Positions 440-56,970 of a stretch of 64,000 nt of DNA are shown in pieces. Under the pieces are notes generated by a model that made no database searches, was not told where the DNA came from, and saw only the letters and a program-made list of their open reading frames with translations. Source of the DNA: Pontiella sp. Its GTDB lineage: Bacteria > Verrucomicrobiota > Kiritimatiellia > Kiritimatiellales > Pontiellaceae. How positions within the stretch are numbered: the first letter of the stretch is position 1; each line of letters starts with the position of its first letter. The position numbers and the translations under genes are program-made. Where the stretch lies: the NCBI GenBank assembly GCA_037132875.1, contig JBAHZU010000146.1:926-64925 (forward strand), written 5' to 3'.

Positions 440-2242
440 ATGATAAATAGTTGGGTGATTATGGTTGGAGTCAGTTTGCTGGCGGGCATGCCGTCGGCCC
501 GGGCTGACGAGCGGGTTCAGCAACGTGAAGATAACTGTGTGATTGTCGATACACGTGAAATCGCATTTGACGGTAAAAGCCTTACCGTTGAGTTTGAAAT
601 GCTGCACCCCGGCGATTATGTGGTGCAATTGGTGCATGCTCCGGAGGCGGCAGGAAAGAGCCTGTTGGCATCAGCCACAGTCAATGGTTCTCCGGTGGGC
701 GGGAATCTCAAACGTGATTATTGGATTGAAGATGGCATTGTCTCCACCTTCACCGAAGGGGTGCTGTTTTCAGAGGCGGGAAAATATTCTATCGCCGTTA
801 CATGTACCCAGAAACCGGTGAAGGTACGCGTTATTCCGACGGTATATTGGAGATCTCGGATTAAGGTTGGTTCTGAAAAATATTATGATGAATGGATAAA
901 GATGCATCAGTCGCCGGAAAAGCAGGCGGGGCTGGAATGGTATAAGAATGCCAAGTTCGGCATGTTTATCCACTGGGGTGTCTATTCTCAGGCCGCCGGA
1001 AGCTGGAAGGGAACGAAGATTGAGGATTCGGGTATCACGGGGCCACGCGTAGCCGAATGGTTAATGTTCACGTTTAATATTCCGCGCGCGGAATACCGAG
1101 AATTTGCTCGGCAGTTTAATCCCGATCAATCTTTTGCGAAGAACATCGCCAAGCTGGCTGCGGATACCGGAATGAAATATATGGTGATTACATCCAAGCA
1201 CCACGATGGTTTTGCTCTATTTGATTCTGCACATTCTGATTGGGATATTGCTGATGCCACGCCGTATAAGGGGGATCTGATCAAGGAGCTATACGATGCC
1301 TGTCAGGCTGAAGGCATTGGATTTGGGGTGTATTATTCCCATGGCCACGATTGGATGGACGGAACGGATGCCGGCTATGCTGAAGTGAAGAAGACGTGGG
1401 ATGAATATAAGGTGCCGATCCGCCCGAATGGGAAAAACTTCTGGGATCCGAGTCCAAATGCTTATCTCGATTATCTGGAAAATAAAGCCTATCCACAGGT
1501 TGCTGAACTGATCCAGTTGATGCCTGAGCTGAAGCTGATTTGGTTTGATGGGGATGGGCTGATTACGGAAGCGCAGGCCTTGCGTTTTTATCGAATGATT
1601 TATGAAATGAATCCGAGCATCGTCGTGAATCGGCGTGTGGGATATGAATATGGTGATTATATCGATGCTGGGGATAACACGACGCCGAAAGCTGGCGAGC
1701 TGGTCGCAAAATATTTTGAAACCTGTGGAACGGCTAACCATTCATGGGGCTTTAAGGCGCACGATGAAGATTGGAAATCCACGAATCAGCTGCTTCGGAA
1801 TTTTTGCGACATTATTTCCAAAGGAGGGAACTATCTGCTGAATATCGGGCCCGATGGAAAAGGCCGTGTGCCGGAGCTGTGCGCCAACCGTTTTGTGGAA
1901 ATGGGCACGTGGGTGAAAACGAATGCCGATGCCATCTATGGAACCACGCGCTGGACGCGGTTCTCAGAAAACGTGAATCCCAAAAAGGGTGCAGAATCGA
2001 TCCCCGGCGAATTCTGGTTTAGTGCCAAAGATAATAAGGTCTATGCCATGTCAATCACACCGGCACCGAAAACGGTGAAGATTGAATCCTTCAATACTTC
2101 CGCGGGAAAAATAACGGCCGTTCGTTTGCTCGGTAGCGATGCCCCGTTGACGTGGACGCAGGGTTTCCAATCATTGGAAATCGATTTCTCAGGCATTAAA
2201 ACGAGCGAGAACGGTTTTGGGGTTGAGGTTGAGTTTGAATAG
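440..2242 (+). CDS. GH29 alpha-L-fucosidase, secreted, with extra N-terminal domain
   Basis: Signal peptide; motifs [30 protein letters not shown] (nucleophile), [13 protein letters not shown]. Confidence 0.9.
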
Positions 2243-2378
2243 GGTCTTGACGAGGTCTTTTTTATGCCGGTTAATTTGGAAAATAGATAAGGCGCATCTT
2301 GTTCCTGCTTTTTGGCCTAAAATAGCTTACTTTTTAAGTATGAATCGCAATAAGTGTGCAGAGGTGAGGGGAAAGTCT

Positions 2379-3860
2379 ATGAAACCAATCTTAATGATAT
2401 ATGTGATGATGGGCGTGGCTGTTTCGGTGGCAGATGCTCTGGAGCAACGTGGCAAACAGCCAAATATAATTTATTTAATGGCGGACGATCAAAATTTTGG
2501 TTCGGTGGGTTGCTATGGCAATCCAGAAGTCCAGACGCCGAATATGGATAAGCTCGGGGCAGATGGGATCATTTTTGATCGGCACTACAACACGACGGCC
2601 ATTTGCATGGCGAGCCGAGCCACCGTGATGACCGGCATGTATGAATACAAAACCGGGACGAACTTTGAGCACGGAAATATGACGCCGGGAATCTGGTCGA
2701 AGTCCTATCCGGTGCTACTGCGTGAGGCCGGATATCTGACGGCATTTGCCGGAAAATTCGGGTTCGAAGTGGACGGCTTCGGCTATGAGTGTGGCGAGTT
2801 TTTCGATTGGTGGGGCGGCGGCCCGGGCCAGACCAGCTATAAAACGTCGGCCAATAAATCGATGGCAGAGTATGCGGAGCAGTATCCGCACTCCACACGT
2901 TCCTATGGCGCATTCGGGCAGGATGTCATTCGAGAGTCGGTTAAGCAGAAAAAGCCATTTTGCCTATCGATCAGCTTTAAAGCCCCGCACCGTCCTGTGC
3001 AACCTGATCCGCTGTTTGATCACATCTATGAGGGAAAGACCTTCATCAAACCTGCGAACTATGGCCGTGAAGCCGGCGAACACATGTCGGAACAGAGCAA
3101 GCAGGGGCGGCAGTATGAACGTTTTTCTTCATGGGGTTATGAAAAAAAATACGACCAGGTTATGGCCAAATATTATCAGCAGATCTACGCCATTGATGTG
3201 GCCCTTGGAATGATTCGCGCTGAATTGGAAGAGCAGGGCGTGGCAGACAATACGGTGATCATTTACACCAGCGACAACGGATTCCTTTGCGGAGCGCATG
3301 GCTATGGCTCCAAGGTGCTACCAATGGAAGAGTCGGCCCGGGTTCCGCTGTTGATCTATGATCCGCGAGTTCCGACCGCTGGAAAAAAACTGCGAAGCCC
3401 CGCGCTGACGGGAAATATTGATTTTGCGCCGACTCTACTCGCGTTGGCCGGACTTCCAATCCCTGGAAATATGGATGGGGTTAGCCTACTTCCCTTGCTG
3501 CAAGATCCCACGGTGGATGTGCGTGAGACGCTGGCCTTTATTAATACTTGGGGCAGTGTTCCCACTCAGAGTTTGACCGTGCTGACGAAAGAGTTGAAAT
3601 ATACCTATTGGTGGTATGGCGATGAGGGTATGGAGCCGACCGAGGACCTATTCCATTTGAAAAAGGATCCATTGGAAATGACAAACCTCGCCCGCAATCC
3701 CGAAGCCTCGCAACTCCTTCAATCCATGCGTATTGCTTATGATGCCGAGCTGGAAAAACTGAAGACGGAATGTGTTAGTCATAATAATTATCAGCAATAT
3801 GGAACGCTTTTTGACCGTTCCATTCCTTGGGATCAGAAAAAATTAACACGGGGAAAATAG
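2379..3860 (+). CDS. Family S1 sulfatase
   Basis: [21 protein letters not shown] (CxAxR variant), [18 protein letters not shown]. Start moved from 2217 to ATG 2379 (MKPILM..., signal peptide). Confidence 0.9.
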
Positions 3861-5744: not shown

Positions 5745-6623
5745 TCATTCAGCAACTTCCAGCTCAGGATTGCTGTCTTGGGGGGCGTCGGATTCTGGGG
5801 CCTCTACTGCCGTAACTTTCTGCTCAGTCGGGTTCTCTATTTTTTCCGACTTGGCTGGCTTCTCTTTTTTATGTTGTTTTTCGGCGCGTTCCTTTTTTAC
5901 AGATTTTGATTTGAGCTGTTTCTCTGCGGACCATTTCACCTCGTTATCCGCATCAAACGCATTCGAAATGTCGGTCTGTTGTTTTGGAGCACACTTCGCG
6001 CAGGAGCTCTGATTTTCCTGTAGTCTCTGTTGATGGCGTCCTTTTGCTTTCTGGCGCTGAGCCTGTGGCCGCTTATTCCGGTTGCTGCGGCCTTGGGTGG
6101 CTTGCGTATTGCGTGGATCCTGATTGCGACCCCGACGGTTCTGCATCGTCTGTGATTCTTGTTGGCCACATTCTTGAACTGCTTGCTGGCGCTGAGCCTG
6201 TGGCCGCTGATTCCGGTTGCTGCGACCTTGGGTGGCTTGCGTATTGTGTGGATCCTGATTGCGACCCCGCCGATTCTGCATCGTCTGTGATTCTTGTTGG
6301 CAGCATCCTTGAACTGCTTGCTGGCGCTGAACCCGTGGTCGCTGATTTCGGTTGCTACGGCCTTGGGTGGCTTGCGTAGTGCGTCGATCCTGATTGCGGC
6401 CCCGACGGTTCTGCATCGTCTGTGGTCCCGCTTGGCGTTGGTTGCAACATCCTTGGCCGACCTGCTTCTGGTCTCCTGCAGATGGGTTCGCTCCGTGCGG
6501 TCCACGTTGTTGCATCTTGAATCGTGGAGCATCGGATCCCGGTTGTTGAGGAATTGCGATGACAGTAATTACGCCTGCAAGCATAGTGGTTGCGGTGATG
6601 ATCAGTTTAGTTCTTGTTTTCAT
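5745..6623 (-). CDS. Secreted low-complexity Gln/Arg-rich tandem-repeat protein
   Basis: GGAGG RBS precedes ATG 6623; MKTRTKLIITATTMLAGVITVIA is signal-like; three ~45-aa repeats; Lys/Glu-rich tail. Confidence 0.75.
   Translation of the reverse strand: MKTRTKLIITATTMLAGVITVIAIPQQPGSDAPRFKMQQRGPHGANPSAGDQKQVGQGCCNQRQAGPQTMQNRRGRNQDRRTTQATQGRSNRNQRPRVQRQQAVQGCCQQESQTMQNRRGRNQDPHNTQATQGRSNRNQRPQAQRQQAVQECGQQESQTMQNRRGRNQDPRNTQATQGRSNRNKRPQAQRQKAKGRHQQRLQENQSSCAKCAPKQQTDISNAFDADNEVKWSAEKQLKSKSVKKERAEKQHKKEKPAKSEKIENPTEQKVTAVEAPESDAPQDSNPELEVAE
6045..6450. repeat. 135-bp coding tandem repeat, about 3 copies
   Basis: CTGGCGCTGA recurs at 6051, 6186 and 6321 (period 135). Confidence 0.9.
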
Positions 6624-6871
6624 GGGTTGCCTCCGTTCAGTTATTTCCCCAGTAGGATTGAATAACGAAGGCGGTAGGTAATTATTTTCCAGAGATTGCA
6701 AAAAAGTGAAAAGAAGGGAGGTGCTCACTGCGTAAAAATAGAGGGGGGCGACCTGCCTGTTCTGCGGAGAATATCCTGTTATGATTGAGTGTGACCTACT
6801 CGAGTGCGGTAAAATTCAATGCCCGTTATTTCGTTGTATTGAAGTGTATGCCGAGCGCTTAAAAGATGGTG

Positions 6872-8691: not shown

Positions 8692-9576
8692 TTATTTTAA
8701 GAAAAGTTCGATGTAGATGAACAGCATGGGGGCGGCGAATAGAATGCTATCGACCATGTCTAGAATGCCGCCGAGCCCATAGACCATGGTGTTGGAATCC
8801 TTCACATTAACCGCGCGTTTAAACATGGATTCGACTAAGTCGCCAACGGTTCCAACGATGGGAAAAAGAACGCCGAGCACGATTGCGTGGAAGAAGGAAA
8901 AGGAGATTTCGCTGTTGATTTGGCCTTTAGAAACAACCCACCAACCGATATTCACGAGAATGCATAATGCAATGCCGCCCAAGAGGCCTTCCCAACTTTT
9001 CTTTGGGGAGATGGTTGGAGCAAGTTTGTTTTTTCCAAAGCGGGTGCCAAAGAAATAGCCACCGGTATCGGCTAATTTCATGCAAAGAATCACGTAAAAA
9101 GCGGCCCAGCCGGGTTCAGAAAGATCGCCCAAAAGGAAGAGGCGGATCACAAAGCTCCAAAGTAGAGGCACATAGACGATGCCCAGAATGGTGCCCATGC
9201 AACTTTCCAGTCCTTTGCGAAGGTCGGAGTAGGCCAAGATACGAAAGAAATTGGAGAGGATAACCACCAAGAGGACGCACCAAAGTGCATTGTCCGAGAG
9301 GTGGAAGCCATCGTAGGCAATGGGGTGTTTTCCAAGGGCATTGAACCAGGTGGCCGTAACAAAAATTAGACCACTACCGATTCCCCATTTGGTGGAGGTT
9401 TTAATGCCGCCCGCGTTCAACAAGCCATAAAACTCCCAGGTGCCGACTCCGGCAAACAGGAGGAGGCCGAGCAGGCCGAGGGGCCATTGGCAGGGGATGA
9501 GGCTGAAGGCCGGTATGATAACCGCCCCAATACTAAGTGCTATGAGAATCCGTTTTTTATCCATCAGGGCCTTCAC
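8692..9576 (-). CDS. cdsA: Phosphatidate cytidylyltransferase
   Basis: DTGGYFFG..FGKNKLAPTISPKKSWEG, GDLVESMFKR..KDS...GGILD..DS. Confidence 0.95.
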   Translation of the reverse strand: MKALMDKKRILIALSIGAVIIPAFSLIPCQWPLGLLGLLLFAGVGTWEFYGLLNAGGIKTSTKWGIGSGLIFVTATWFNALGKHPIAYDGFHLSDNALWCVLLVVILSNFFRILAYSDLRKGLESCMGTILGIVYVPLLWSFVIRLFLLGDLSEPGWAAFYVILCMKLADTGGYFFGTRFGKNKLAPTISPKKSWEGLLGGIALCILVNIGWWVVSKGQINSEISFSFFHAIVLGVLFPIVGTVGDLVESMFKRAVNVKDSNTMVYGLGGILDMVDSILFAAPMLFIYIELFLK

Positions 9577-10307
9577 TATTTATTCTTAACACCACCATAC
9601 CTGCGATCCCGCCCGTTGAAAGCTTCCAATGCATGGAAAAACTGTTCTTCGCGGAAGTCGGGCCAGTAGTCGTCAGAGATGTAAAATTCCGCATACGAGA
9701 GCTGCCAGAGCATAAAATTGCTCAGGCGAAGCTCGCCGCTGGTGCGGATCATTAGTTCCGGATCGGGAACGTCCGGGAGATAAAGGTGGTTGGCAATCGC
9801 CTGTTCATCGATTTCTTTCAGCTTCATTTCGCCGGATTGAACCTTCTGCGCAAGCTGCTGGGCTGCGTTTGCAATTTCCATACGGGAGCCATAGCTTAGG
9901 GCAATCACAAAGGTGTGGTCGGTATAGTGCGCCGTGGCATCAATGGTTTTTTGTAGGCGCATCCGAACGGGCAGGGGTAGTTTTTCAAACTGGCCCATCA
10001 CCCGGAGGCGAATATTATTGTCGTGTAGCTCCTGCTCATATTCATTCAGAGAATGAACGAGCAATTTCATCAGGCCCTCCACTTCCTTCACTGGGCGCTT
10101 CCAATTTTCCGTGCTGAAGGCGTAGACCGTAATGAATTCTACGCCAGCTTGGGCCGCGGCACGTAAAACGGCGCGCACCGACTGGGCACCTTCTTTATGC
10201 CCTTCGCTGCGCGAAAGACCCCGTTGCTGAGCCCAGCGCCCGTTGCCATCCATGATGAGGGCAACGTGACGCGGGATTTTTTCCAAGCATTGGAAATCGA
10301 GGTCCAT
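9576..10307 (-). CDS. uppS: Undecaprenyl diphosphate synthase
   Basis: HVALIMDGNGRWA, FSTENWKRP, IRTSGELRLSNFMLWQ. Confidence 0.97.
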   Translation of the reverse strand: MDLDFQCLEKIPRHVALIMDGNGRWAQQRGLSRSEGHKEGAQSVRAVLRAAAQAGVEFITVYAFSTENWKRPVKEVEGLMKLLVHSLNEYEQELHDNNIRLRVMGQFEKLPLPVRMRLQKTIDATAHYTDHTFVIALSYGSRMEIANAAQQLAQKVQSGEMKLKEIDEQAIANHLYLPDVPDPELMIRTSGELRLSNFMLWQLSYAEFYISDDYWPDFREEQFFHALEAFNGRDRRYGGVKNK

Positions 10308-10316
10308 AAGCTCCGT

Positions 10317-11594
10317 TTAGCGATCGAGTTGCATCGTGCTGGTCCGCTGCGGACCCACGGAGAGAATGCTGACTTTAACGCCGGTGATCTCTTCGATGTA
10401 CTCGATGTATTTCTGAGCCTGTTCTGGAAGTTCTTCCCAACAGGTGCATTCGGTGGTGGGCGTGTTCCATCCTTTAAAATCTTCATAGATCGGCTTGCAG
10501 CGTCCGAACTTATTGATGGACGCGGGAACATTATCAATACGCTCGCCGTCGCATTCATAAGCCACGCAAATCTTAATGGTTTCAACGGCGTCGAGCACAT
10601 CGAGCTTCATCAGCGACCACTCGTTAATGCCGCAGACCATCGCAGAGTATTTGGCAATCACGGCATCGAACCACCCGCAACGACGCGGCCGTCCGGTGGT
10701 GGCACCGAATTCGTGGCCGACGCTAGCAATGTGTTCGCCATCGGCATCAAAGAGTTCGGTAGGGAAAGGACCTTCACCCACGCGGGTCGTATACGCTTTC
10801 ACAATGCCAACGCATCGGTCAATGGCGCCCGGAGGAACGCCAGAGCCAGCCGGTGCGCCGCCCGCACCCGTGCTGGAAGAGGTTACATAGGGGTACGTTC
10901 CGAAATCGACGTCGAGCATCAAGCCCTGTGCGCCTTCAAATAGGATTTCATCATCGTCCTGAACCGCTTTGTGAAGAAGTGGAATGGTATCGCAGATGAA
11001 TGGCTTGAGGTAGTTCGCTGCTTCAGAGATTTCAGCAACCACTTCATCCACATTCAGGGCTTCGCCCCCGATGGATTCGATGATTTTATTCTTCGTAATG
11101 GTTAGTTCGCGAACGCGGTCAAGAAAGTCGGCTTCCATAATGTCGCCCATACGAAGGCCGATCCGATCGGCTTTATCCATATAGCACGGTCCGATTCCCC
11201 GTTTGGTGGTGCCGATCTTTTTGCCTTTTTCTAGATTGCCTTCTTTAGCGCCATCGAGTGCTTTGTGGTAGTGTAGAACAATGTGAGCGCGGTCAGAAAT
11301 GAAGAGTCGATCATCGAGTTTAATGCCGCGCTCAACCAGTTCAGTCAGTTCGCTCATTAGGCCAACGAGGTCAACCACGAGGCCGTTGCCGATGACACAC
11401 TTGCATGTGTCCCGCAGGATTCCAGAAGGAGTGAGATGGAGCACATATTTCTGATCACCGATTTCAACGGTGTGACCGGCATTATTGCCGCCCTGGTAAC
11501 GAATCACCCAGTCGGCATTCGCCGTGAGTACGTCAATAATTTTTCCTTTGCCTTCGTCGCCCCATTGCGACCCGATAAGTACTGTTCTCGACAT
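10317..11594 (-). CDS. purA: Adenylosuccinate synthetase
   Basis: QWGDEGKGK, GGNNAGHT, EGAQG, GTYPYVTSS, GATTGRPRRCGW. Confidence 0.98.
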   Translation of the reverse strand: MSRTVLIGSQWGDEGKGKIIDVLTANADWVIRYQGGNNAGHTVEIGDQKYVLHLTPSGILRDTCKCVIGNGLVVDLVGLMSELTELVERGIKLDDRLFISDRAHIVLHYHKALDGAKEGNLEKGKKIGTTKRGIGPCYMDKADRIGLRMGDIMEADFLDRVRELTITKNKIIESIGGEALNVDEVVAEISEAANYLKPFICDTIPLLHKAVQDDDEILFEGAQGLMLDVDFGTYPYVTSSSTGAGGAPAGSGVPPGAIDRCVGIVKAYTTRVGEGPFPTELFDADGEHIASVGHEFGATTGRPRRCGWFDAVIAKYSAMVCGINEWSLMKLDVLDAVETIKICVAYECDGERIDNVPASINKFGRCKPIYEDFKGWNTPTTECTCWEELPEQAQKYIEYIEEITGVKVSILSVGPQRTSTMQLDR

Positions 11595-11924
11595 GATGCT
11601 TACACTCCAATTAGTAATTATCGGTTATCGGAAGATCCGCACTTTTCCGCCTTTTTTCTGACAACCATTAAAAAAGCCCTCTCGTCATAAGGGGGCGAAT
11701 GAAGCGGTGAAATGTAGGGAATGGTTATGTCTGCGTCAAGACTTCAGAAAATAGAATGGGTTGAACCCGATTTACGTTTCCCAAAGCTTGGAAAGAATTT
11801 CATTTGTGGGGTGGACATTGGAGGACGGCGAGGATATAAAAAGAACACTTTTAATCGACATTTTCGGGTCTGGAATAAAAAATTTCGCGGAAAGTCGGAT
11901 GACACAAATAAGAAGGAGACAATC

Positions 11925-12170
11925 ATGTTTCTAGAAGTATATGCCGTTAAGCGCAGTGAATACACCGAAGCAACCGGGATTTCTAAGGTTGAAGAAAATC
12001 GTCGTCTGATCGAAATGACAGGTGCCCGAATTCGCTATTCAAGCTTATTCCCAGACCGTGCAGAAATCGTGCTGCCCAGCAAATCCACTTTTCTGGCTGC
12101 AGGAAGTTACGAAGAAATCGTGAGCCGTATTGCTGCTGCAAAAGGCAAAGTGGCTCGCATCGAAGACTAA
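11925..12170 (+). CDS. 81-aa hypothetical protein, weak FlbD-like C-terminus
   Basis: AAGGAG RBS before ATG 11925, own terminator. The longer ORF-track start at 11721 is unlikely. Confidence 0.7.
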   Translation: MFLEVYAVKRSEYTEATGISKVEENRRLIEMTGARIRYSSLFPDRAEIVLPSKSTFLAAGSYEEIVSRIAAAKGKVARIED

Positions 12171-12195
12171 ATCGGATACCATGTATTGTTTTAAT

Positions 12196-12222
12196 GGCCG
12201 GCCTTCGGGGCTGGCCTTTTTT
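12196..12222 (+). terminator. Intrinsic terminator
   Basis: GGCCGGCC-TTCGG-GGCTGGCC followed by a T run. Confidence 0.8.
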
Positions 12223-13232
12223 GTTGTTAGTCAGGCCGATCAATCCAATCGCGTGTAAAAGAGCAAGCACCGAAAACGGCGGTGGACTTTATTCCCGTTC
12301 TCTGCCGGAATCCCAACCTGCAGGACGAAGCAAAATCATCAGGATTCCGAAAGCCGGAACGTATCCTCTGTCGGAGTTCGAAGCATCGCCCGGAGGAAGT
12401 TCGATGATATCCCGCCCGATGTCGATTCCCTCGAAAAGCAGATCCGAAAAGGCCATCTGAAAGACAGCCGCATGGTCTCTCTTTGAAAAGCCTGCAATCG
12501 AAGGAACCCGAATGTACAGGCTGAGGAAATCCTTGCTGGCCCTAATCCGTAGCGCTTTTGTGACTTATGGGTTAATTTGTGACGAGTTGCGAAGTGAGAG
12601 GGGAGGCTCGGGGCACGAAGTTTGCGTCCGCTAGCAATGTGGAACTCGTGTGAACTATTCCGCTGACCCTGTTTTTAACGTCAATTCATCTTTTTCAAAG
12701 TCATCTTGCTCGGTCCCTATCTTGGCGGACTCATGGGGCCCTTGGATAAATATTTTATGAGCTCAGTTGTATATCGTTGATCTCCCTCATATGTAATGAA
12801 AAAAGATACTTCGATATAGGCTAATGCCGTGAGTATCCATCGATCACCGTTTTATTTGGTGAATAGCCAATGCTTAAGTTAACATGGAAACTTAAAATGA
12901 AGTCTTGTTTTGATAGTATGTCAAGTAGGTTGTTTGTGAATAAAAAGTGTCCCAATACTCAGTTTGGTGTGTGCATAGATGAGAAAGGGAGAGTGGCTGG
13001 CGGAGAGTGAATAGATGATGAGTGAGTAAAAAATATCTGATGTATGGTGGCTCGTGGCCAAATTACTTTGGCCCCCCGCGGTTCGTTGGATAGCGTTGGA
13101 AGAAGGATGTCAATACTCTGAAATAGAGAGAGCATCTTTTTGACCTAATGAGGTTTGCACTGTTTGGCGATGAATCACCATCAGCTGGATGGGAGTGATG
13201 TTGTATGAGCTCGAAAATAGATTGAGGTTGTA

Positions 13233-14606: not shown

Positions 14607-14619
14607 ATAAGGCTATTTT

Positions 14620-16518: not shown

Positions 16519-16688
16519 TACAGGGGAAAATATATTCATTTGCATAAACCACGCATGGATATTTATGAACATGAATTTAAAACCAGTACAGTAGCGCAGA
16601 TCGTGGTTTTAAAAATGCGTGCGTTTAGAGTGAGTGGTGTACTCGGTTTCCTCAGTCAATGTGATGCACCTCAAAAAGGATACAAACT

Positions 16689-18026: not shown

Positions 18027-18030
18027 AAAG

Positions 18031-21825: not shown

Positions 21826-21836
21826 AGGAGAATTAC

Positions 21837-23905: not shown

Positions 23906-24706
23906 ATGAAAAAATTGATATTGATGGTTTTGATCGGACTGGGGAGTTCCGTTTTTGCCGTAACAAACGACTTTCATGAGGGGGCCGAAGCGAAGCAAGG
24001 AATTTCATTTTATAACGCAAACTACGCGATGTTAGGCGTTGATCCCATTGTGGAGATGAAACTGCAGTTTTCGTTTAAATATCGGTTTGTAGAGCCGGGG
24101 ACTTTTGACGGCCAGTGGTCGAAACCGGTGAATAATCTCTTTTTTGCGTACACCCAGAAAATGCTCTGGGATTTGGAGAAGAATTCGTCGCCGTATGAGG
24201 ATGCCAATTTGGACAGTTCTTTTAGTCCGGAGCTATTCTGGATGTATCGGGACCTATTCCCCATCTCAGAAAAGGCAACGATGGATCTGCAGTTTGGCTA
24301 TCAGCATGAGTCGAATGGGCGTGCTGGAGAGTCTGAGCGTACGTGGGATCGTCTCTATGTTCAGCCTTCTTGGACCTGGGGGGAAACGGGCGACTGGCAG
24401 GCGGTTTCAATGCTTAAAATCTGGATTCCAGTGGGGGTGGGCGAGGAAATGGATGATATCGGCGACTATTTCGGACCGGGCGAGTTTTGGCTGAAGGTCG
24501 GCCAGCATGATGGAATGATGTTGGAGACGATGTTGCGCAAGGGTTCCAATGATTGGAACGGAGCGGTGGAGCTGAGTGCTTCGTATCCGGTGCGGTCTTT
24601 GAATCTGTTTGTTTATGGCCAGGTTTTCTATGGATATGGCGAAACATTGCGACTTTATGATCAGGAAACTACATCGTATCGGCTGGGAATCTCTTTTTCT
24701 CGATAA
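23906..24706 (+). CDS. pldA: Outer-membrane phospholipase A (OMPLA)
   Basis: KLQFSFK, AYTQKMLW, HESNG catalytic motif, SRTWDR-like ERTWDR, YGYGETL, C-terminal GISF. Confidence 0.88.
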   Translation: MKKLILMVLIGLGSSVFAVTNDFHEGAEAKQGISFYNANYAMLGVDPIVEMKLQFSFKYRFVEPGTFDGQWSKPVNNLFFAYTQKMLWDLEKNSSPYEDANLDSSFSPELFWMYRDLFPISEKATMDLQFGYQHESNGRAGESERTWDRLYVQPSWTWGETGDWQAVSMLKIWIPVGVGEEMDDIGDYFGPGEFWLKVGQHDGMMLETMLRKGSNDWNGAVELSASYPVRSLNLFVYGQVFYGYGETLRLYDQETTSYRLGISFSR

Positions 24707-44091: not shown

Positions 44092-44174
44092 GTTCTCCCG
44101 TGAATACCATCCCAGTTTTTTACAGACCTAGGAAAAAAGAAAGGCAAAACTTCCAATGACTGGAAAAGGCACCT

Positions 44175-47669: not shown

Positions 47670-49424
47670 ATGAAAATATTGCTGATAACCCCACCTCTGC
47701 TACAGCCAAACACGCCGTATGCCGCCACGCCCTTGCTCACCGCTTGGCTGAAGTCGATTGGGCATGATGCGGTTCAGAGTGATTTGTCGCTGAAATTACT
47801 ACTTAAACTTTTTTCAAAGTCAGGCATTGAACGATTGAGCGGCGAACTCGGTATTCCGCTGGATGCCGCCGAGCCTTATCTGAAAACCGTAGAAGAGGTG
47901 CTTGCGTTTCTTCAGAATAAAAATCCGGGTGCCGTCGGAAAAATTCTACAGCGTGGCTGGCTGCCGGAAGGAGAGAATCTGGTCCGCGCTTATGAACTTG
48001 AAGAGCAGTTGCAGTGGAATTTCCGGGGATTGGATCCGGAAGATCGTGCTCGGTATCTTGCGGGACTTTATTTGGATGATATTGCCGATGTTGCTTCGGA
48101 GCTTGATCCGCATTTTGGATTCTCGCGCTATGCAGAAAGCCTGACCGCCAGCCTTCCATCGTTTGGAATTGTGCAGGATGAACTGGAGCAGGGTGATTCC
48201 ATCTTTTTCCAATGGTTGGAAGAGTTGGCCGATGAAGAGATGCGGAAGCATCGTCCCGAGACGGTGATCATCACCATTCCTTTTCCGGGTTGCCTGCTTG
48301 GTGCGCTTATTATTGCACGTCGGATACGGGCAACATACCCGTTGACTCATATTGCGATCGGAGGGGGATATCCGAATACGGAGCTGCGGGAACTGAAAGA
48401 TCCAAGCATCTTTGAATATGTCGATAGCATCATTCTGGATAGCGGTTTCCTTCCGCTACAACGCTTGGCTGACGGCGGGAAACTCGTGCGCACGTTTGTC
48501 TGCGAAAATAATGAAGTCGTTTTCAAAAACTCGGAAGCGGTGGAGGTGCCTCATGCAGATTTGCCGCCCCCCGATTTCCACGGATTGGAACTGGATGACT
48601 ATTTTGGGATCTTCGAGGTGCTTAATCCGGTAACCCGGCTCTGGTCGGACGGACGTTGGAATAAGTTGGTGCTGGCGCATGGTTGTTGCTGGAGTCGCTG
48701 TGCTTTCTGCGACACCTCCATCGACTATATCAGCCGCTATGATCCTGCAGATGCGAAGACCATTTGTAACTGGATCGAACGAGTCATGGCGCAAACCAAA
48801 TTTTCGGGCTTCCATTTTGTGGATGAGGCCTTGCCGCCGGACCTTTTAAATAATCTGTGCGACGAAATTCAACGGAGAGGGTTGGATATCGAGTGGTGGG
48901 GTAATATCCGCTACGAGAAACGTTTTTCAACGGAGCTGATTCAAAAAATGGCCGCGGCCGGGTGCATTGCGGTGACCGGCGGGTTGGAAACCGGATGCGA
49001 TCGGACGCTTAAGTTGATGAAAAAAGGCATTACCTTGCAGTATGCCACGCGCGTTTTGACCGACCTCGCTGCCGCGGGGATATTGACACATGCTTATTTG
49101 ATGTATGGTTTCCCAACTCAGACCGAAAAAGAAACGTTTGAAACCTTGGAAACCGTGCGCGCTCTTTTTGATGATGGGATTCTCCATTCTGCCTATTGGC
49201 ATCGATTTGCTTTAACCGACCATAGTGATATTTCCATTCATCCGGAGCGGTACCAGGTTCGGGTTTCAAGCCGACCGGTATCGACCTTTGCCCGCAATGA
49301 GATCCCGTTCGAATATGATTTTGATCACGATGTCGCAATAGTAGGAGAGGCTCTTAAGGCAGCAACCTATAATTATATGCATGGAATCGGCTATGAAACG
49401 CCGGTCAGAAATTGGTTAAATTAA
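47670..49424 (+). CDS. B12-binding-domain radical SAM protein
   Basis: ILLITPP, IGGGY, CWSRCAFC (CxxxCxxC), FVDE, YLMYGFP. Confidence 0.88.
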   Translation: MKILLITPPLLQPNTPYAATPLLTAWLKSIGHDAVQSDLSLKLLLKLFSKSGIERLSGELGIPLDAAEPYLKTVEEVLAFLQNKNPGAVGKILQRGWLPEGENLVRAYELEEQLQWNFRGLDPEDRARYLAGLYLDDIADVASELDPHFGFSRYAESLTASLPSFGIVQDELEQGDSIFFQWLEELADEEMRKHRPETVIITIPFPGCLLGALIIARRIRATYPLTHIAIGGGYPNTELRELKDPSIFEYVDSIILDSGFLPLQRLADGGKLVRTFVCENNEVVFKNSEAVEVPHADLPPPDFHGLELDDYFGIFEVLNPVTRLWSDGRWNKLVLAHGCCWSRCAFCDTSIDYISRYDPADAKTICNWIERVMAQTKFSGFHFVDEALPPDLLNNLCDEIQRRGLDIEWWGNIRYEKRFSTELIQKMAAAGCIAVTGGLETGCDRTLKLMKKGITLQYATRVLTDLAAAGILTHAYLMYGFPTQTEKETFETLETVRALFDDGILHSAYWHRFALTDHSDISIHPERYQVRVSSRPVSTFARNEIPFEYDFDHDVAIVGEALKAATYNYMHGIGYETPVRNWLN

Positions 49425-49966: not shown

Positions 49967-51640
49967 ATGCTCAGAACATTAAAAATTAAAAATCTCGCGC
50001 TCGTTGATGACGTTCAGGTGGGCTTCAGCGAAGGCCTCAATGTAATTACCGGTGAGACCGGTGCGGGTAAATCCCTCCTGATTGGGGCCTTGCGGCTTCT
50101 GCTCGGAGAGCGCGCCGATAAATCCATGATCCGCACGGGCGAAAGCTCCTGTGCCGTGCATGCCGAGTTCGGGCTTGAAAATACCGATCAGGTGGACGCG
50201 ATTCTGGAAGATGTTGGGCTCGAACCGTGCGATGGCGGCCTGTTGCTGATTCGGCGCATCATTACCGAATCGTCCAATCGAACCACCGTGAACGACGAGT
50301 CGGTTACGCTGAGCGTGCTTAAACGTTTGGGCGCAGTACTGGTTGATATGCACGGGCCCTATGATCACCAATCGCTGCTGGATCCGAAGGTGCAACTTGA
50401 AATTCTCGATGCATTTGGACAGCTCGATAAGGCCAAAGCGACCTATCTGGTGGAGTACAAAAAGTATGGTGAGGTTCAGAAGCAGATTAATGCGCTGAAT
50501 TCTGATAACGAAGAAGACCTGTTGCGGCAGATTGAATTTCTCGATTATCGGGTGAATGAAATTGAAAGTGCGAACCTGAGTGTGGACGAGGGTGCCGAGG
50601 TGGAAGAGGAGCACAGTGTAATTGCCAACTCGCAACATGTCATTGAACTAGCGAACGGGGTGGTCCAGGCTTTGACCGAAGCGGAAGGGTGCGCGTTCGA
50701 TGGCCTCGTTGCCGCGCAGCAGGCCCTCAATCAATTAATCAAATTATTGCCCGAGGCTCAGGACTGGCACGATGAAATTGAAACGGCGGTCACTTCCATT
50801 CAGGAAGTGGTTCGCTCGGTTGAAGATTCAGCGGCTGGAATTGATGACAGTGCCGAGCGCATGCAATGGCTCGATGACCGCCTCACGACCTATCAAACGC
50901 TTAAAAGAAAATATGGTTCCACGGTGGAAGAGGTGTTGACCAACGGCCAAATGTGGAGTGAACAACTGAAGGAACTCCGCGGCCGGGGTCGCCGGCGCGA
51001 GGAATTACAGCGCGAGCTTGCCACCCTGTTCCAGACCCTGGAAAAAGTAGGTGCGGCACTGCGAAATAAGCGTGAAAACGTGGCCGACCATCTTTCTGAA
51101 TCGATCACTCGCGAGCTGGTCGATATTGGCTTTGAACATGGATTTTTTGATGTGCAGATCACGCCGTGCGATCCAACGCCGTTGGGGATGGATGTGATTG
51201 AATTTGGTTTTGCCCCCAACGCCGGAGAAGATATGCGCCCGCTGCGCATGATTGCTTCATCCGGCGAAATTTCCCGCGTCATGCTGGCCACCAAAGTCGT
51301 ACTGGCGAAGCAGGACCAGATTCCTGTGCTGGTATTCGATGAGATCGATGCGAACATTGGTGGAGAAATTGGCGGAGCCGTCGGGCGTAAATTGGCCCAA
51401 GTGGCCGACTGCCATCAACTGCTTTGCATCACACATCTTCCCCAGGTGGCCGCTTGTGGAGACCGGCATTTGGCGGTTACCAAAAAAGTGGAAGATGGCC
51501 GCACCTTCACCGAGGTGGAATTGTTGGATGATGAAGGGCGGGCCGAAGAACTGGCCCGCATGCTCGGGGGAAAGGGTTCCACCAACGTCACCCTTCAGCA
51601 CGCCAAAGAGATGCTGAATCAAACCACCCTCGATTTCTGA
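49967..51640 (+). CDS. recN: DNA repair protein RecN
   Basis: ITGETGAGKS, HGPYDHQ, ASSGEISR, FDEIDANIGG, CITHLPQVAA. Confidence 0.97.
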   Translation: MLRTLKIKNLALVDDVQVGFSEGLNVITGETGAGKSLLIGALRLLLGERADKSMIRTGESSCAVHAEFGLENTDQVDAILEDVGLEPCDGGLLLIRRIITESSNRTTVNDESVTLSVLKRLGAVLVDMHGPYDHQSLLDPKVQLEILDAFGQLDKAKATYLVEYKKYGEVQKQINALNSDNEEDLLRQIEFLDYRVNEIESANLSVDEGAEVEEEHSVIANSQHVIELANGVVQALTEAEGCAFDGLVAAQQALNQLIKLLPEAQDWHDEIETAVTSIQEVVRSVEDSAAGIDDSAERMQWLDDRLTTYQTLKRKYGSTVEEVLTNGQMWSEQLKELRGRGRRREELQRELATLFQTLEKVGAALRNKRENVADHLSESITRELVDIGFEHGFFDVQITPCDPTPLGMDVIEFGFAPNAGEDMRPLRMIASSGEISRVMLATKVVLAKQDQIPVLVFDEIDANIGGEIGGAVGRKLAQVADCHQLLCITHLPQVAACGDRHLAVTKKVEDGRTFTEVELLDDEGRAEELARMLGGKGSTNVTLQHAKEMLNQTTLDF

Positions 51641-53338: not shown

Positions 53339-55105
53339 CTAATCAGTCCGGATGCTTGGGGCGTGCAAAAGTAATTCGTATAGCTGCCGATAGTAGCCGT
53401 CGTTGGCCATCAGTTCATTGTGCGTACCTTGATCCACCAGCTCGCCATGCCGCATCACCAGAATGCGGTCCGCATTCCGGATGGTGGAAAGTCGATGGGC
53501 AATCACAATGGAGGTCCGGTTCGACATCAATTTCGCGAGGGCATCCTGAATGAGCATCTCCGTGGCGGTATCGACGCTGGCGGTGGCTTCGTCGAGCACG
53601 AATAAAAGTGCAGGATCCTGGGCCAGAGCACGGGCCATCACGAGCAATTGCTTCTGGCCCAGCGAAAGGCCCGCTCCGCGTTCATTCATGATCGTATCGT
53701 AGCCATCCGGCATGGCCTCAACAAACGTGTGTGCATTCACGGTTTGGGCGGCCCGTATAATATCGGATCGTTCCAGCCCCGGTGTGCCCAAGCTGATGTT
53801 ATCCGCAACCGATCCGGTGAAGATGAAGGGTTCTTGGAACACATAGCCGAGCCGTTTGCGCAGATCATATTTTGCAAAGTTTTTGATGTCGATTCCGTCA
53901 ATGGTCACTGAGCCCTGCTGAACATCATAAAATCGGCCGATGAGATTGATGATGGTGCTTTTGCCCGCTCCCGTTGCGCCCACCACGGCCAGCACCTGGC
54001 CGGGTTCCACATTAAATGAGAGGTTTTTAATGACCGGATGGTCTTTTACATAAGAAAAACTTACGTTGTTGAAGGCAATGGCTCCAGCAATACGGTCGGG
54101 CGTTTCGGGCGTTTCGGGATCGTTAATCAGTTCCTCGGTATCGAGCAGGTCGAAGACGCGCTCAATGGAAGCCATGGCCACTTGGAAGGACCCAATCTTG
54201 TCAGATAATGAGCCTAAGGGTTGGAAGAATCCCTTTAAATAGGCCAGAAAAGCAATCAGCGTGCCGAGGGTCAGCAGATCTGGGCTTTGCATCATCAGCG
54301 TGCCTCCAATGGCCAAGGTGATCAGCTGGGCCACGACCTGCCCGGATTCCATGGTTGGGAAATACAAGCTGAACCACTTGACCTCGTCATAGTAGGCGGA
54401 GCGGAGATGTTTGTTGCGAATTTTGAAGTCTTCCACCGCCTGGCCTTCTCGGTTAAAGAGCTGGATCGTGGTCATGCCCGTGAGATCTTCTTGAATGAGC
54501 GCATTCAAATTCGATTGCCGGTCGCGGATATCGCGGTTGGCATTGCGTAGTTTGATGTTCACAAAATACAGGAGCACAAAAAGGAAGGGGAGGGTGGCGA
54601 AAATGGAAATGGATAGCCGCGGGCTAAACCAGATCATATAGCCCATAATCCCCATGATCATGAATAGGTCGGCAATCGACCCCACCACGCCTTCAGTCAC
54701 AAAATTTTGCAGGCGTTCAATGTCGGAGGTCACCCGACTCATCAGCGTTCCGATGGCCGTTTTGTCAAAATAGCCCTGATGCAACCGCAATACTTTTCGG
54801 AATACGGAAAGTCGCAGGTCGTAAATAATTTTTTGGCCAATCCACGCGGTCAGCAGCGTCTGCAGATAGCGGATCAGATAGCCCACCGCGGCAATGCTAA
54901 TGTAGATGATGCCCAAATGAATCAGCAGGTCCATGCGATCGCTCATGGGCGAAGCAGGATTCCTCAGCACATCATCTGTAATGCGTTGCAACAAGACCGG
55001 GAGGTAGTTAATCGACAAGGTCGTAAGCATGATCAAGATGAATGCAAGGGTCAGCCAACCGGAATACGGTTTGGCATAGGAAAGAAAACGGCGGCCCTTA
55101 TTCAT
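53339..55105 (-). CDS. ABC exporter half-transporter (TMD-NBD)
   Basis: GATGAGKS, LSLGQKQ, LDEATASVD, IAHRLST. Confidence 0.95.
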   Translation of the reverse strand: MNKGRRFLSYAKPYSGWLTLAFILIMLTTLSINYLPVLLQRITDDVLRNPASPMSDRMDLLIHLGIIYISIAAVGYLIRYLQTLLTAWIGQKIIYDLRLSVFRKVLRLHQGYFDKTAIGTLMSRVTSDIERLQNFVTEGVVGSIADLFMIMGIMGYMIWFSPRLSISIFATLPFLFVLLYFVNIKLRNANRDIRDRQSNLNALIQEDLTGMTTIQLFNREGQAVEDFKIRNKHLRSAYYDEVKWFSLYFPTMESGQVVAQLITLAIGGTLMMQSPDLLTLGTLIAFLAYLKGFFQPLGSLSDKIGSFQVAMASIERVFDLLDTEELINDPETPETPDRIAGAIAFNNVSFSYVKDHPVIKNLSFNVEPGQVLAVVGATGAGKSTIINLIGRFYDVQQGSVTIDGIDIKNFAKYDLRKRLGYVFQEPFIFTGSVADNISLGTPGLERSDIIRAAQTVNAHTFVEAMPDGYDTIMNERGAGLSLGQKQLLVMARALAQDPALLFVLDEATASVDTATEMLIQDALAKLMSNRTSIVIAHRLSTIRNADRILVMRHGELVDQGTHNELMANDGYYRQLYELLLHAPSIRTD

Positions 55106-56916
55106 TATTTGGCCTCCAGTTTCTGTTCCAATTGCTGGAGGGTGTTGAGTTCTGCATAATAGCCCGGCTGCTGAATCAGTTCTTCGTGGGTCCCGCGCTG
55201 GGTAATTTGTCCGTCTTCAATCACAATCAGCGTGTCGGCATAACGCAGCGTGGAGATGCGGTGGCTCACAAAGAGGGTGGTGTGGTTGTGCATAACGGGC
55301 TGGAGTTTTGACATAATGGCCGCCTCCGTCTGTGTATCGACCGACGCAAGGACATCATCAAGAATCAGAATGTCGGGCTTGCGCGCAATGGCCCGGCTAA
55401 TGGAGGTGCGCTGGCGTTGCCCGCCGGAAAGTGTAACGCCGCGTTCGCCCAGCATCGTCTCATATTTTTCAGGGAATCCTTCCACGTCGTGATGCAGGTG
55501 GGCAATGTCGGCCGCCCAGCTGATGGTGGATGCATCCAACTCATCCAAGCCAAAGCCAATATTATGTTCGAGGGTCTTGGAAAATAGCATCGGTTCCTGG
55601 GCCGCATAGCCAATCATGCCCCGCAGTTGGCTGAGCGGAAGATCGCGAAGGTCGATTCCTCCAATTTCAATGGACCCGGCGGTGGGGTCGGAAAGACGTG
55701 CCACCAACGAGGTCAATAGGGTTTTTCCGCTCCCGGTCGGGCCAGTAATGCCCAGTGTCTGGCCGCGCGGCACGTCCAAGTTGATGTTCTGCAGGAAGGT
55801 GCGCCCATCAATTTTGAGTTCCACTCCTTGGAAATGGATCGAGGCTTCCGGACATTTTCCAGGGATTGGAAGATCGGCTTTTTCCTGAATGGTCGGTTCG
55901 CGCTCCAAAATCTCTTTAATACGCAACCAACTCACTTTGCCGCGCTGGAGCATCGAAAGCACCCAACTGATGGCCAGCAGCGGCCATTGCATATAGAGCA
56001 GATAGGCCGAAAATTGGGTCAGCGTTCCCAATGAGAGATCGCCCGAAATCACTTTTTTTCCGCCGACCACCATAATCAGAATGGTGCCGAGGCCAAAGCC
56101 AAAGGACATGAAGGAAAAGAGGAAGTGGCGCGAGGCCGCCACGCGCATATTTTTACCAATGAGGTCGCTGTTTAATTCTTCAAACGCGCGGTTCCGTCGC
56201 GTTTCGAGCGCAAAGCCTTTAATGCAACGGATGCCGGAGAAGGTTTCCTGGGAATAGTTCGAAACCTCTGCAACATGTTCCTGCAGTTCCTGCTGGTAGC
56301 GCCGCATGATGCGCAGAATTAGAAAGAAAACAATCACCATGGGCGTGAACAGGCCGACCACGATGAGCGCTAGCTGGAGGTCGGCCAGCGCCATGACGCT
56401 GGTGGCCATGCAGATAACCAAAATGGTGCGTACGCCCTGCAGAAAGCCTTGGCCAATGGAATCGCGCACCAAATTAATGTCGGAAGAGAGTCGGGTCATC
56501 AGGTCGCCGGTGCGCTTCGAACGATAGAACGCCTGATCCATTTGGGTGAGATGTTGGAACACATCGTTGCGCAGCGTATATTCCACCTTATGAGAGAGCA
56601 TCATCGGAAAATGGCGAAGGTAGCGCGAAAAGAAGATGGAAATCGCTCCGACCACGAAAAAGTAGATCAGATACCAAATAAGTTGCGGCTGCGTTAGGGT
56701 TTCCGTTTCTAGGCCGTCGATGATCCACCGCGTGAAAACAGGCAACATCAGGTTGCAACCCACCGTAATCAGGCCGCAAAGAAGGGTGCTGATAAGGTCC
56801 TTTCGATACGGCAGGAAATAGCGAGTTAATCTGATAGGTGATTTTTCGATGACAAATACTCCGATAAAGCATTTCACGGTATCGGCTTCCAAATCGAATG
56901 CAAGCCCGCTTTCCAA
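55105..56916 (-). CDS. ABC exporter half-transporter (heterodimer partner); start uncertain
   Basis: GPTGSGKT, LSGGQRQR, LDDVLASVD, VSHR; 1-nt overlap with the partner gene. Confidence 0.93.
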   Translation of the reverse strand: MESGLAFDLEADTVKCFIGVFVIEKSPIRLTRYFLPYRKDLISTLLCGLITVGCNLMLPVFTRWIIDGLETETLTQPQLIWYLIYFFVVGAISIFFSRYLRHFPMMLSHKVEYTLRNDVFQHLTQMDQAFYRSKRTGDLMTRLSSDINLVRDSIGQGFLQGVRTILVICMATSVMALADLQLALIVVGLFTPMVIVFFLILRIMRRYQQELQEHVAEVSNYSQETFSGIRCIKGFALETRRNRAFEELNSDLIGKNMRVAASRHFLFSFMSFGFGLGTILIMVVGGKKVISGDLSLGTLTQFSAYLLYMQWPLLAISWVLSMLQRGKVSWLRIKEILEREPTIQEKADLPIPGKCPEASIHFQGVELKIDGRTFLQNINLDVPRGQTLGITGPTGSGKTLLTSLVARLSDPTAGSIEIGGIDLRDLPLSQLRGMIGYAAQEPMLFSKTLEHNIGFGLDELDASTISWAADIAHLHHDVEGFPEKYETMLGERGVTLSGGQRQRTSISRAIARKPDILILDDVLASVDTQTEAAIMSKLQPVMHNHTTLFVSHRISTLRYADTLIVIEDGQITQRGTHEELIQQPGYYAELNTLQQLEQKLEAK

Positions 56917-56941
56917 TGTTTGGAAATACAGGTGGTTCAGT

Positions 56942-56970
56942 TTGACTTTCCATGGGTTGGAAACTATAAA
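56942..56970 (+). promoter_or_regulatory. Sigma70-type promoter whose spacer holds a TTTCCA-N5-TGGAAA palindrome
   Basis: TTGACT-ttccatgggttggaaac-TATAAA (17-nt spacer). Confidence 0.65.

Follow-up and report, generated by a model that had tools for sequence, protein, structure and literature searches.

What is the short palindrome TTCCAA-N3-TTGGAA, and why does it recur both within and between genes in a 64-kb stretch of DNA from Pontiella sp. (contig JBAHZU010000146.1; the whole 64,000-nucleotide stretch is termed the window)? An earlier inspection of the letters, made without database searches (the sequence-only reading), had proposed a lineage-specific, genome-wide signal that imprints proteins, leaving three options for its nature unranked: an uptake tag, a nucleoid or global regulator site, or a miniature repetitive extragenic palindrome (REP). 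The analysis described here revealed that the word is constrained as DNA, in a broader form than first recognised, and suggests that it may be the binding site of a putative oligomerising protein of Kiritimatiellia. The window is ordinary core chromosome, encoding UppS, CdsA, PurA, HisRS, AspRS, iPGM, LptA/B, HPr kinase, PtsI, CoaE, Rho, AccA, RecN, MiaB, isocitrate dehydrogenase, sulfatases and a GH29 fucosidase. Its MiaB, 85% identical to that of a Pontiella desulfatans metagenome-assembled genome, assigns the window to the Pontiellaceae (Kiritimatiellales).

Definition and abundance of the palindrome

The window contains nine perfect copies of TTCCAA-N3-TTGGAA against 0.00 expected, with zero copies in 100 dinucleotide shuffles. 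The eight copies previously listed were all found where they had been placed, and a ninth, at 24544, had been missed. The hexamers TTCCAA and TTGGAA, each ~3-4 times over-represented in the window, lie exactly 3 nt apart in 9 cases, and every other gap from -6 to 40 nt occurs at most once. Permitting one mismatch raises the number of copies to 26 versus 0.4 expected, and the mismatches of these near-copies fall mostly at the two innermost arm positions, which identifies TTCCA-N5-TGGAA as the real core. The hexamer definition was thus too narrow: the core occurs 21 times in the window versus 0.08 expected, a ~260-fold excess, and the shorter TCCA-N5-TGGA 27 times versus 1.2 expected. Most of the near-copies listed earlier fit this definition, those at 3454, 9624, 44151, 51029, 55819, 56948 (given as 56947), 59040 and 60470 carrying the exact core and those at 11779, 27158 and 32940 one core mismatch; the entry at 32916 is not a copy, its arms being 6 nt apart instead of 5.

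A symmetrised consensus was derived from 55 exact-core sites in the window and eight related loci, 172 kb together, and reads t(62%)-TTCCA-R(A 68%, G 23%)-N-S(G/C 88%)-N-Y-TGGAA-a. It displays a graded dyad symmetry across 17 bp with a preference for G/C at the dyad centre, the word being its own reverse complement. The same 172 kb hold 42 one-mismatch copies against the 55 exact ones, and the outer T and inner A are where these chiefly deviate. No enrichment was seen for arm variants able to preserve a hairpin, and single sites have weak predicted hairpins (-5 to -9 kcal/mol); it is therefore the sequence that is kept, not the pairing. In word-rich Pontiellaceae lineages, the window included, the density is about 1 per 1.5-3 kb.

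Two candidate elements were rejected. No longer conserved element surrounds single copies, as their flanks are unrelated apart from the T and A, and the frequent 9-mer GGTTTCCAA represents half-sites only. Such half-sites (GGTTTCCAA / TTGGAAACC) number 11, three of them within the full copies at 2165 and 36105; the eight isolated ones (25133, 31182, 37493, 41948, 45934, 48984, 49146 and 57253) may be sites in decay or in the making, and in some of them a second arm matches in part.

Distribution of copies in the window

Fifteen of the 21 core copies are located within genes, and the intergenic ~10% of the window accounts for five to six. The copies are as follows, with perfect referring to TTCCAA-N3-TTGGAA and core to TTCCA-N5-TGGAA.

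2165..2179, perfect copy TTCCAATCATTGGAA, in the GH29 fucosidase gene (440-2242, + strand), frame 0, FQSLE, 63 nt ahead of the stop codon
3454..3468, core copy TTCCAATCCCTGGAA, in a sulfatase gene (2217-3860, + strand), L-P-I-P-G
9624..9638, core copy TTCCAATGCATGGAA, in the UppS gene (9576-10307, - strand) close to its 3' end, FHALE, 48 nt upstream of the cdsA start
10281..10295, perfect copy TTCCAAGCATTGGAA, codons 5-9 of the UppS open reading frame (ORF), FQCLE
24544..24558, perfect copy TTCCAATGATTGGAA, in a phospholipase A1 gene (23906-24706, + strand), third frame, S-N-D-W-N
33245..33259, perfect copy TTCCAACCATTGGAA, in a multihaem cytochrome/TPR gene (32957-35347, - strand), FQWLE
35380..35394, perfect copy TTCCAAATATTGGAA, intergenic, between the divergent cytochrome/TPR and HAD hydrolase genes
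36101..36123, 10-bp-stem palindrome CGGTTTCCAAGGGTTGGAAACCG containing the perfect copy 36105-36119, RNA hairpin of -13.9 kcal/mol, beginning immediately 3' of the HAD gene stop and upstream of a Ser/Thr kinase gene
39768..39782, perfect copy TTCCAACGATTGGAA, in the CoaE gene (39330-39947, + strand), FQRLE
39871..39885, core copy TTCCAAATCGTGGAA, also in the CoaE gene, L-P-N-R-G, 65 nt upstream of where rho starts
44151..44165, core copy TTCCAATGACTGGAA, intergenic, with NfeD and short-chain dehydrogenase genes diverging on either side, its end 10 nt short of the ATG at 44175
48154..48168, core copy TTCCATCGTTTGGAA, in a radical SAM gene (47670-49424, + strand), L-P-x-x-G, 53 bp from the copy at 48207
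48207..48221, perfect copy TTCCAATGGTTGGAA, in the radical SAM gene, FQWLE
48576..48590, core copy TTCCACGGATTGGAA, in the radical SAM gene, FHGLE
51029..51043, core copy TTCCAGACCCTGGAA, in the RecN gene (49967-51640, + strand), FQTLE
55819..55833, core copy, in an ABC exporter gene (55105-56916, - strand), FQGVE
55857..55871, core copy, in a poorly conserved linker of the same ABC exporter gene, L-P-x-x-G, 38 bp from 55819
56911..56925, perfect copy TTCCAATGTTTGGAA, located upstream of the operon for the ABC exporter
56948-56962, core copy TTCCATGGGTTGGAA, filling the spacer of a promoter-like element (56942..56970, + strand)
59040..59054, core copy TTCCAGACGTTGGAA, in the MiaB gene at its 3' end, FQTLE
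60470..60484, core copy TTCCAACAGCTGGAA, within the gene for the monomeric isocitrate dehydrogenase, L-P-T-A-G
32940..32954, one-mismatch copy TTCCAAACATTGGAC, intergenic
8850, 11779, 26324, 27158 and 47135 (starts), further one-mismatch copies

The true start of the ABC exporter is probably ~60 nt inside ORF 55105-56916. The longest core-free stretch (10296-24543, 14 kb) holds hypothetical genes together with those for HisRS and AspRS, and by a rough Poisson estimate its length is not clearly significant.

Constraint at the DNA level

Five of the six perfect genic copies read F-Q-x-L-E, and this peptide, together with the excess of each hexamer, could suggest that the word is artefactual and reflects codon usage, amino-acid composition or a recurrent peptide. 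The counts refute this explanation, to which we attach practically no weight: codon or amino-acid bias does not account for the word. Besides the absence of copies from the dinucleotide shuffles, copies occur in intergenic DNA and, within genes, in all three frames, as F-[QH]-x-[LVM]-E, L-P-x-x-G or S-x-x-W. The F-Q-x-L-E reading of coding copies given earlier therefore holds for those in frame 0 and misses the L-P-x-x-G copies (3454, 39871, 48154, 55857, 60470) and the S-N-D-W-N copy (24544). Among spellings of the form TTY-CAN-NNN-NTG-GAR in the window, TTC...GAA occurs 21 times, TTT...GAA and TTC...GAG twice each and TTT...GAG not at all, so that synonymous variants are ~10 times rarer than the word itself. 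Likewise, 15 of the 20 places that could encode F-Q-x-L-E in any spelling use the core-compatible one, which represents ~1 in 16 of the possible spellings.

Orthologue alignments lead to the same conclusion, as orthologues in word-poor genomes have neither the peptide nor the word and amino-acid changes to suit the word are found in word-rich genomes only. At 55819 the peptide is FQGVE in the window and FQELE in the Pontiellaceae B12219 locus (L003), where the site is kept; word-poor relatives have FENVD, FENLH, FRHVD or FKDAS at this position, indicating that the protein has been altered to fit the word. The view taken in the sequence-only reading, of a lineage-specific, genome-wide DNA-level signal that imprints proteins, is borne out by the synonymous-variant counts, the F-Q-x-L-E spelling and the orthologue comparison. 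Insertion of a mobile 15-bp unit was considered as an origin of coding copies and rejected, since the alignments reveal substitutions, not 5-codon insertions.

Conservation and decay among relatives

Core counts over 27 Kiritimatiellales loci revealed a patchy density, from 0 to 0.7 per kb. The richest locus is L003, with 15 core copies in 21 kb (0.05 expected, ~300-fold), followed by L027 (5 copies in 13 kb), L008 (4 in 11 kb), L005 (3 in 7 kb) and L020, L021 and L022 (2 copies each, in 7, 21 and 16 kb, respectively). Five other loci have one core copy each and the remaining fifteen, among them the closest relative L001, have none. No alternative palindrome replacing the word was found in the word-poor relatives, and the Bacteroidota and Spirochaetota outgroup loci from the same query contain no core copy in 942 kb, a further point against an artefact of coding.

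The window and L003 share the gene order from a LamB-like porin to MiaB, the two MiaB proteins being 84% identical. Each of the five window sites of this syntenic block (55819, 55857, 56911, 56948 and 59040) is matched by a copy at the corresponding L003 position, and the pair 56911 + 56948 is also kept in L005. In the ABC exporter linker, 20 of 20 arm bases are identical between the window and L003, in contrast with only ~50% identity over the 23-nt stretch between the sites and the N5 cores. Upstream of the promoter-like element, the partner site is likewise degraded, in L001 through the deletion of 1 bp and also in L004. Presumably, sites persist as long as they are read and decay once the reader is lost.

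Sites at a promoter and upstream of ABC exporter operons

The copy at 56948 lies within a promoter-like element of the + strand, TTGACT (56942-56947), a 17-nt spacer and TATAAA (56965-56970), which faces a gene for a FAD/NAD oxidoreductase (57026, + strand). The two hexamers, 17 nt apart, are kept in at least 8 relatives, and in the window, L003, L005 and L022 a core copy takes up the spacer exactly. The spacer contains a one-mismatch copy in L020, a two-mismatch copy (TTTCAAGGATTCGAA) in L001 and a three-mismatch copy in L004, and no trace of the word in L013. An automated promoter scan did not flag the element 56942-56970, because the scan demands T at position 6 of the second hexamer.

In the window, the ABC exporter operon has the pair 56911 + 56948 on its upstream side. 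A distant Kiritimatiellia contig (L394) has a 32-bp site pair 55-100 nt upstream of a two-gene ABC exporter operon, whose first protein is 45% identical to the window exporter over its full length. The promoter-spacer site and the exporter-operon pair point to an ancestral operator-like use of the word. As to sites at the promoters of a conserved gene set, one spacer site and one shared operon pair were found, and most window copies are genic.

Helically phased arrays in metagenomic contigs

A three-site pattern permitting spans of 65-105 nt revealed arrays at at least 120 metagenomic loci. Among the matches listed, the three sites span 75-79 nt (two 30-32 bp steps) or 87-89 nt (31 + 42 bp). 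Arrays usually comprise three or four copies, of which the following are representative.

L281: copies at 3078, 3109, 3140, 3171
L306: copies at 7445, 7476, 7507, 7538
L269: copies at 6945, 6977, 7009, 7041
L342: copies at 7946, 7977, 8009, 8041
L336: copies at 1633, 1665, 1697, 1729 and at 3324, 3356, 3388

Four-site arrays span about 110-125 bp. Their spacers keep their length and are unrelated in sequence, both within and between arrays, which argues against their being copies of one mobile unit. A stop codon precedes the arrays by 3-50 nt, and they lie in gaps between co-directional or convergent genes and once between convergent tRNA genes, and in some contigs they occupy nearly every intergenic region. 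No gene was common to their neighbourhoods and none of the arrays matched an Rfam family. The HrpB helicase encoded beside the L306 array has its nearest matches among proteins named Kiritimatiellia or Kiritimatiellae bacterium, indicating that the arrays belong to the same class as the window. Of three further Kiritimatiellia contigs, one lacks the word over 13.8 kb, another has a 32-bp pair between divergent genes, and the third is L394 with its pair; low-density genomes keep the word only as intergenic pairs and arrays.

These settings raise the possibility of an RNA or single-stranded DNA hairpin resembling REPs and bacterial interspersed mosaic elements (BIMEs), acting at gene ends as a terminator, a stabiliser of mRNA 3' ends or the target of a REP-associated transposase. 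Consistent with such a role, the arrays fold better than shuffles (z about -4), and the extended 10-bp stem at 36105 directly follows a stop codon. At L348 10889-10965 each palindrome has a 5' A-tract and a 3' T-tract, the opposite of the window flanks, and these units resemble tandem bidirectional terminators between convergent tRNA genes. REPs, however, are extragenic and 15 of the 21 window copies are genic; the hairpins of single sites are weak, compensated arm variants are not in excess, and the 5' T and 3' A flanks in the window and its close relatives have the wrong polarity for intrinsic terminators. RNA hairpins need no strict helical phasing, and the unrelated spacers, as well as the origin of coding copies by substitution, do not fit a mobile unit. 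No gene for a REP-associated tyrosine transposase (RAYT) was seen in the window, where no dedicated test for one was made. Taken together, a REP-like nature appears improbable.

Copies in phages and prophages

In viral contigs a scan with the single 17-mer was swamped by chance matches, and a two-site pattern was used instead, which identified 78 viral contig loci. Several of these match the Kiritimatiellales-type consensus exactly. Among them are arrays of seven copies with steps of 31, 31, 22, 31, 31 and 31 bp, the last copy having one core mismatch (L211), and of seven or more copies (L210); one viral contig has four and three copies (L253 and L232) and another locus a 31-bp pair (L241). 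The prophage-like contig IMGVR_UViG_3300010411_000001 (L189, L191, L240; 49.8 kb) carries 14 dispersed core copies in 27 kb. It encodes an integrase, a Bro-N-type protein and a 562-aa C5 cytosine methylase, and a triple site precedes its lipoprotein gene (L191 4663-4730). The three-copy array at L232 3429-3505, with 31-bp steps, lies apparently within an ORF, its copies reading in all three frames (FPVVGK, FSNHWK and FQSLEK). No similar arrays were found in cultured phage and plasmid records.

The arrays of L211, L210 and L253 are located 0.4-1.3 kb upstream of terminase and portal genes. This placement and the triple site upstream of a prophage gene would suit a packaging or other phage-derived signal copied by the host, either a pseudo-pac site favouring transduction or operators of a prophage repressor. 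A phage with an 85% identical TerL retains one intact copy plus decayed remnants, suggesting that the array is dispensable and labile and not an essential pac site. Neither was a repressor gene found beside the arrays, and chromosomal arrays fill nearly every intergenic region of some contigs. Palindromic dimer sites are, to our knowledge, not typical of small-terminase rings. A phage origin of the signal is thus very improbable. Other viral loci have the same arms with other flanks and periods and represent unrelated operators: GTTCCACATCGTGGAAC in 49-bp tandem repeats (L196 4928-5089), GAGTTCCAAACTTTGGAACTC six times (L263 7607-7846), ATTCCACAATGTGGAAT at 20-bp steps (L242 13144-13238) and a 22-bp tandem repeat (L251 11847-11927). 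The TTCCA-N5-TGGAA arm pair may be a recurrent operator type among phages.

The methylase gene of the word-rich prophage-like contig bears on another explanation, in which the word is a DNA methyltransferase target whose sites are made and kept by methylation-dependent biased repair of the very-short-patch kind, as in Elhai's model for HIP1 (highly iterated palindrome 1) of cyanobacteria. CCA-N5-TGG is the specificity of a type II enzyme (PflMI), which favours this explanation. The word is a palindrome with a rigid inner part, and its patchy gain and loss among close relatives suits mobile methyltransferases. The deviation of one-mismatch copies at the outer T and inner A is reminiscent of how HIP1 copies deviate (PMC4390886). 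Against it, the window contains no methyltransferase gene, the graded information over 17 bp exceeds that of usual methylase sites, and repair bias leaves the phased arrays and the promoter placement unexplained. Site-specific conservation, moreover, favours selection over neutral replenishment, as Xu et al. argue for HIP1 (PMC5861425). We consider methylation-driven maintenance to be a poor candidate.

A putative oligomerising DNA-binding protein

The half-sites are one helical turn apart, clustered sites follow at steps of three or four turns, and spacers are fixed in length and free in sequence; together these features suggest a dimeric, oligomerising protein that binds one face of the DNA. 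The reading that we favour, although we consider it evenly poised between right and wrong, is that the word is the high-affinity binding site of a putative homodimeric, oligomerising Kiritimatiellia DNA-binding protein, a site that has expanded through the chromosome in some Pontiellaceae. The observations are that the word is enriched, has a consensus, is constrained as DNA, is conserved in some relatives and decayed in others, and forms phased arrays as well as arrays in phages; from these we infer protein binding, the oligomeric state and a role in global regulation and/or nucleoid organisation. With 5-bp arms centred 10 bp apart, a dimer would read both arms from one DNA face. At clustered sites, spaced 3 or 4 turns (31-32 or 42 bp) from one another, every dimer would lie on that same face, where they could join as a tetramer or octamer wrapping or bridging about 110-130 bp, in the fashion of Lrp-type octamers, which bind regularly spaced 15-bp semipalindromes and wrap DNA (PMC10201364). 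The ancestral use would have been as operator-like intergenic pairs and arrays at promoters and gene ends. In some Pontiellaceae lineages, including that of the window, single sites would then have spread chromosome-wide, genes included, to the present density, and may be maintained by selection or by a continuing drive acting on the DNA itself. Lineages that lose the protein would let the sites decay, and phages of the same communities carry arrays or host-like site densities. Among the three options that had been left unranked, the regulator or nucleoid site thus gains from the helical-turn arrays, the exact promoter-spacer fill and the shared ABC operon pair, and the uptake tag and mini-REP are weakened.

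Several observations weigh against this protein-site reading. No candidate gene for the binding protein was found in the window or beside the arrays. The site holds >24 bits, versus ~11 bits needed for ~1 site per 2-3 kb, and exact copies outnumber one-mismatch copies; uptake sequences and HIP1 typically show both the surplus information and the dominance of exact copies, which sites of regulators or nucleoid proteins typically do not. Near-perfect genic copies at such a density and the ~twofold surplus of information are what the reading explains poorly, and we know of no regulator site that enters coding DNA so densely. The close pairs of the window are 37, 38 and 53 bp apart, not 31-32 bp, and the location of many arrays just 3' of stops, between convergent genes or tRNAs, fits terminator- or REP-like roles.

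The dense genic copies and the surplus of information point towards a self tag, the main rival explanation. In this explanation the word resembles HIP1, the uptake signal sequence (USS) of Haemophilus or the DNA uptake sequence (DUS) of Neisseria and is read in DNA uptake or recombination during natural transformation, having accumulated by biased uptake, recombination or selection, alone or in addition to a protein-site role. Hyper-abundance in coding and non-coding DNA, the predominance of exact copies and the surplus of information for the frequency all agree with it. Peptides are imprinted at poorly conserved positions, as for uptake sequences (PMC2817400), and HIP1 likewise has sites kept between genomes (PMC5861425) and a patchy occurrence among relatives (PMC4390886). 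A methylation-dependent role in transformation is now proposed for HIP1, a palindrome whose methylated form raises transformation according to two preprints (bioRxiv 10.1101/2024.09.10.611283; 10.64898/2026.06.24.733823). Uptake tags, however, act singly, and neither arrays at 31-32 or 42 bp with unrelated spacers, nor the exact filling of a promoter spacer, nor a pair at the same operon in a distant Kiritimatiellia genome are predicted for them. Furthermore, low-density genomes retain only intergenic pairs and arrays, and a literature search yielded no paper on competence in Kiritimatiellota. A self tag is, accordingly, possible and rather unlikely.

More tentatively still than the protein-site reading itself, the word may belong to a sequence-specific, chromatin-like system of Kiritimatiellia. 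Oligomer particles with ~120 bp wrapped on four-site arrays would punctuate gene boundaries, in some lineages thousands of single genic sites would also organise the chromosome or mark it as self, and phages would copy arrays to exploit or evade the system; alternatively, the word could double as a HIP1-like uptake or recombination tag.

Comparison with known genome-wide words

The cyanobacterial HIP1 (GCGATCGC) is a close parallel in abundance. It is a palindrome over-represented 15-300 fold within and between genes, its conservation between genomes implies selection (PMC5861425), it is patchy among relatives (PMC4390886) and its function was long obscure. The Kiritimatiellia word similarly displays an excess above 15-fold (~260 in the window, ~300 in L003) and sites kept beyond their flanks. 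In contrast with the 8 bp of HIP1, it is bipartite (5-N5-5) with graded flanks over 15-17 bp and belongs to another phylum, and the HIP1 abstracts examined report neither helically phased arrays nor promoter sites.

USS and DUS occur at ~1 per 1-3 kb with exact copies dominating, are enriched in non-coding DNA and are written into proteins at poorly conserved positions (PMC2817400), and the present word shares both the exact-copy dominance at high abundance and the imposition at poorly conserved protein positions. Unlike the word, USS and DUS are not palindromes and no phased arrays are known for them. Lrp/AsnC operators provide a likeness in geometry, being regularly spaced 15-bp dyad sites that each bind one dimer, with wrapping by the octamer (PMC10201364); in the word, the ~15-bp dyad has half-sites one turn apart, and whole-turn spacing recurs in at least 120 metagenomic loci. 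Its sequence, however, bears no relation to the AT-rich boxes of Lrp type, its sites are not linked to any Lrp-family gene, and the word has hundreds to thousands of near-perfect copies, genic ones included.

Enterobacterial REPs and BIMEs are also arrays of short palindromes, intergenic, at gene 3' ends and between convergent genes, with many per genome. They differ in being longer, imperfect, extragenic only and copied as mobile units with conserved linkers; the word, by contrast, has unrelated spacers and helically locked spacing, enters genes as single copies, and displays neither conserved linkers nor compensatory hairpin change. The sites matS, NBS (Noc-binding), SBS (SlmA-binding) and parS are 12-16 bp palindromes that are bound by dimers and lie in genes regardless of coding. 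They number tens per genome and are regionally confined, and the word is about 10-100 times denser. As a palindrome it is not strand-polar, unlike Chi or the FtsK-orienting polar sequences (KOPS).

Few bacterial lineages write a short word thousands of times genome-wide (USS/DUS, HIP1, Chi and REP), and each of these has been instructive on DNA uptake, recombination or chromosome structure. The motif string was not found in any paper by the literature search, nor was a paper linking Kiritimatiellota with palindromes, competence or nucleoid proteins; as far as this search shows, the word would be the first of its kind in the Planctomycetes-Verrucomicrobia-Chlamydiae (PVC) group. Selected genic single copies, helically phased arrays at gene boundaries and phage copies have not been reported together, and there is a substantial chance that the phased arrays reflect something not yet described. 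The 17-bp oligonucleotide and a four-site array provide a handle for an abundant putative DNA-binding protein in a poorly studied, hard-to-culture phylum, and metagenomic and viral contigs could be assigned to taxa and hosts with the word as a marker.

Other features of the window

No known RNA families or tRNAs were found in the window. No public sequencing run was listed as containing the window, and an identical protein was not on record in public assemblies. A region of ~770 nt (12460-13233) has no ORF of at least 80 codons, a G+C content below that of its surroundings and no Rfam or tRNA match; it precedes genes (13233-18026) that lack family matches and also lack the palindrome. A 135-bp tandem repeat (6045-6424; 2.8 copies, 91% matches) sits in a 327-aa ORF (5745-6728, - strand) with no Pfam or NCBIfam match. 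Rho (39950-41638; 562 aa) has a long N-terminal extension of about 150 residues before the Rho_N domain. The GC skew is positive in all 4-kb bins and most genes are on the + strand, which is consistent with the + strand being the leading strand across the whole window.

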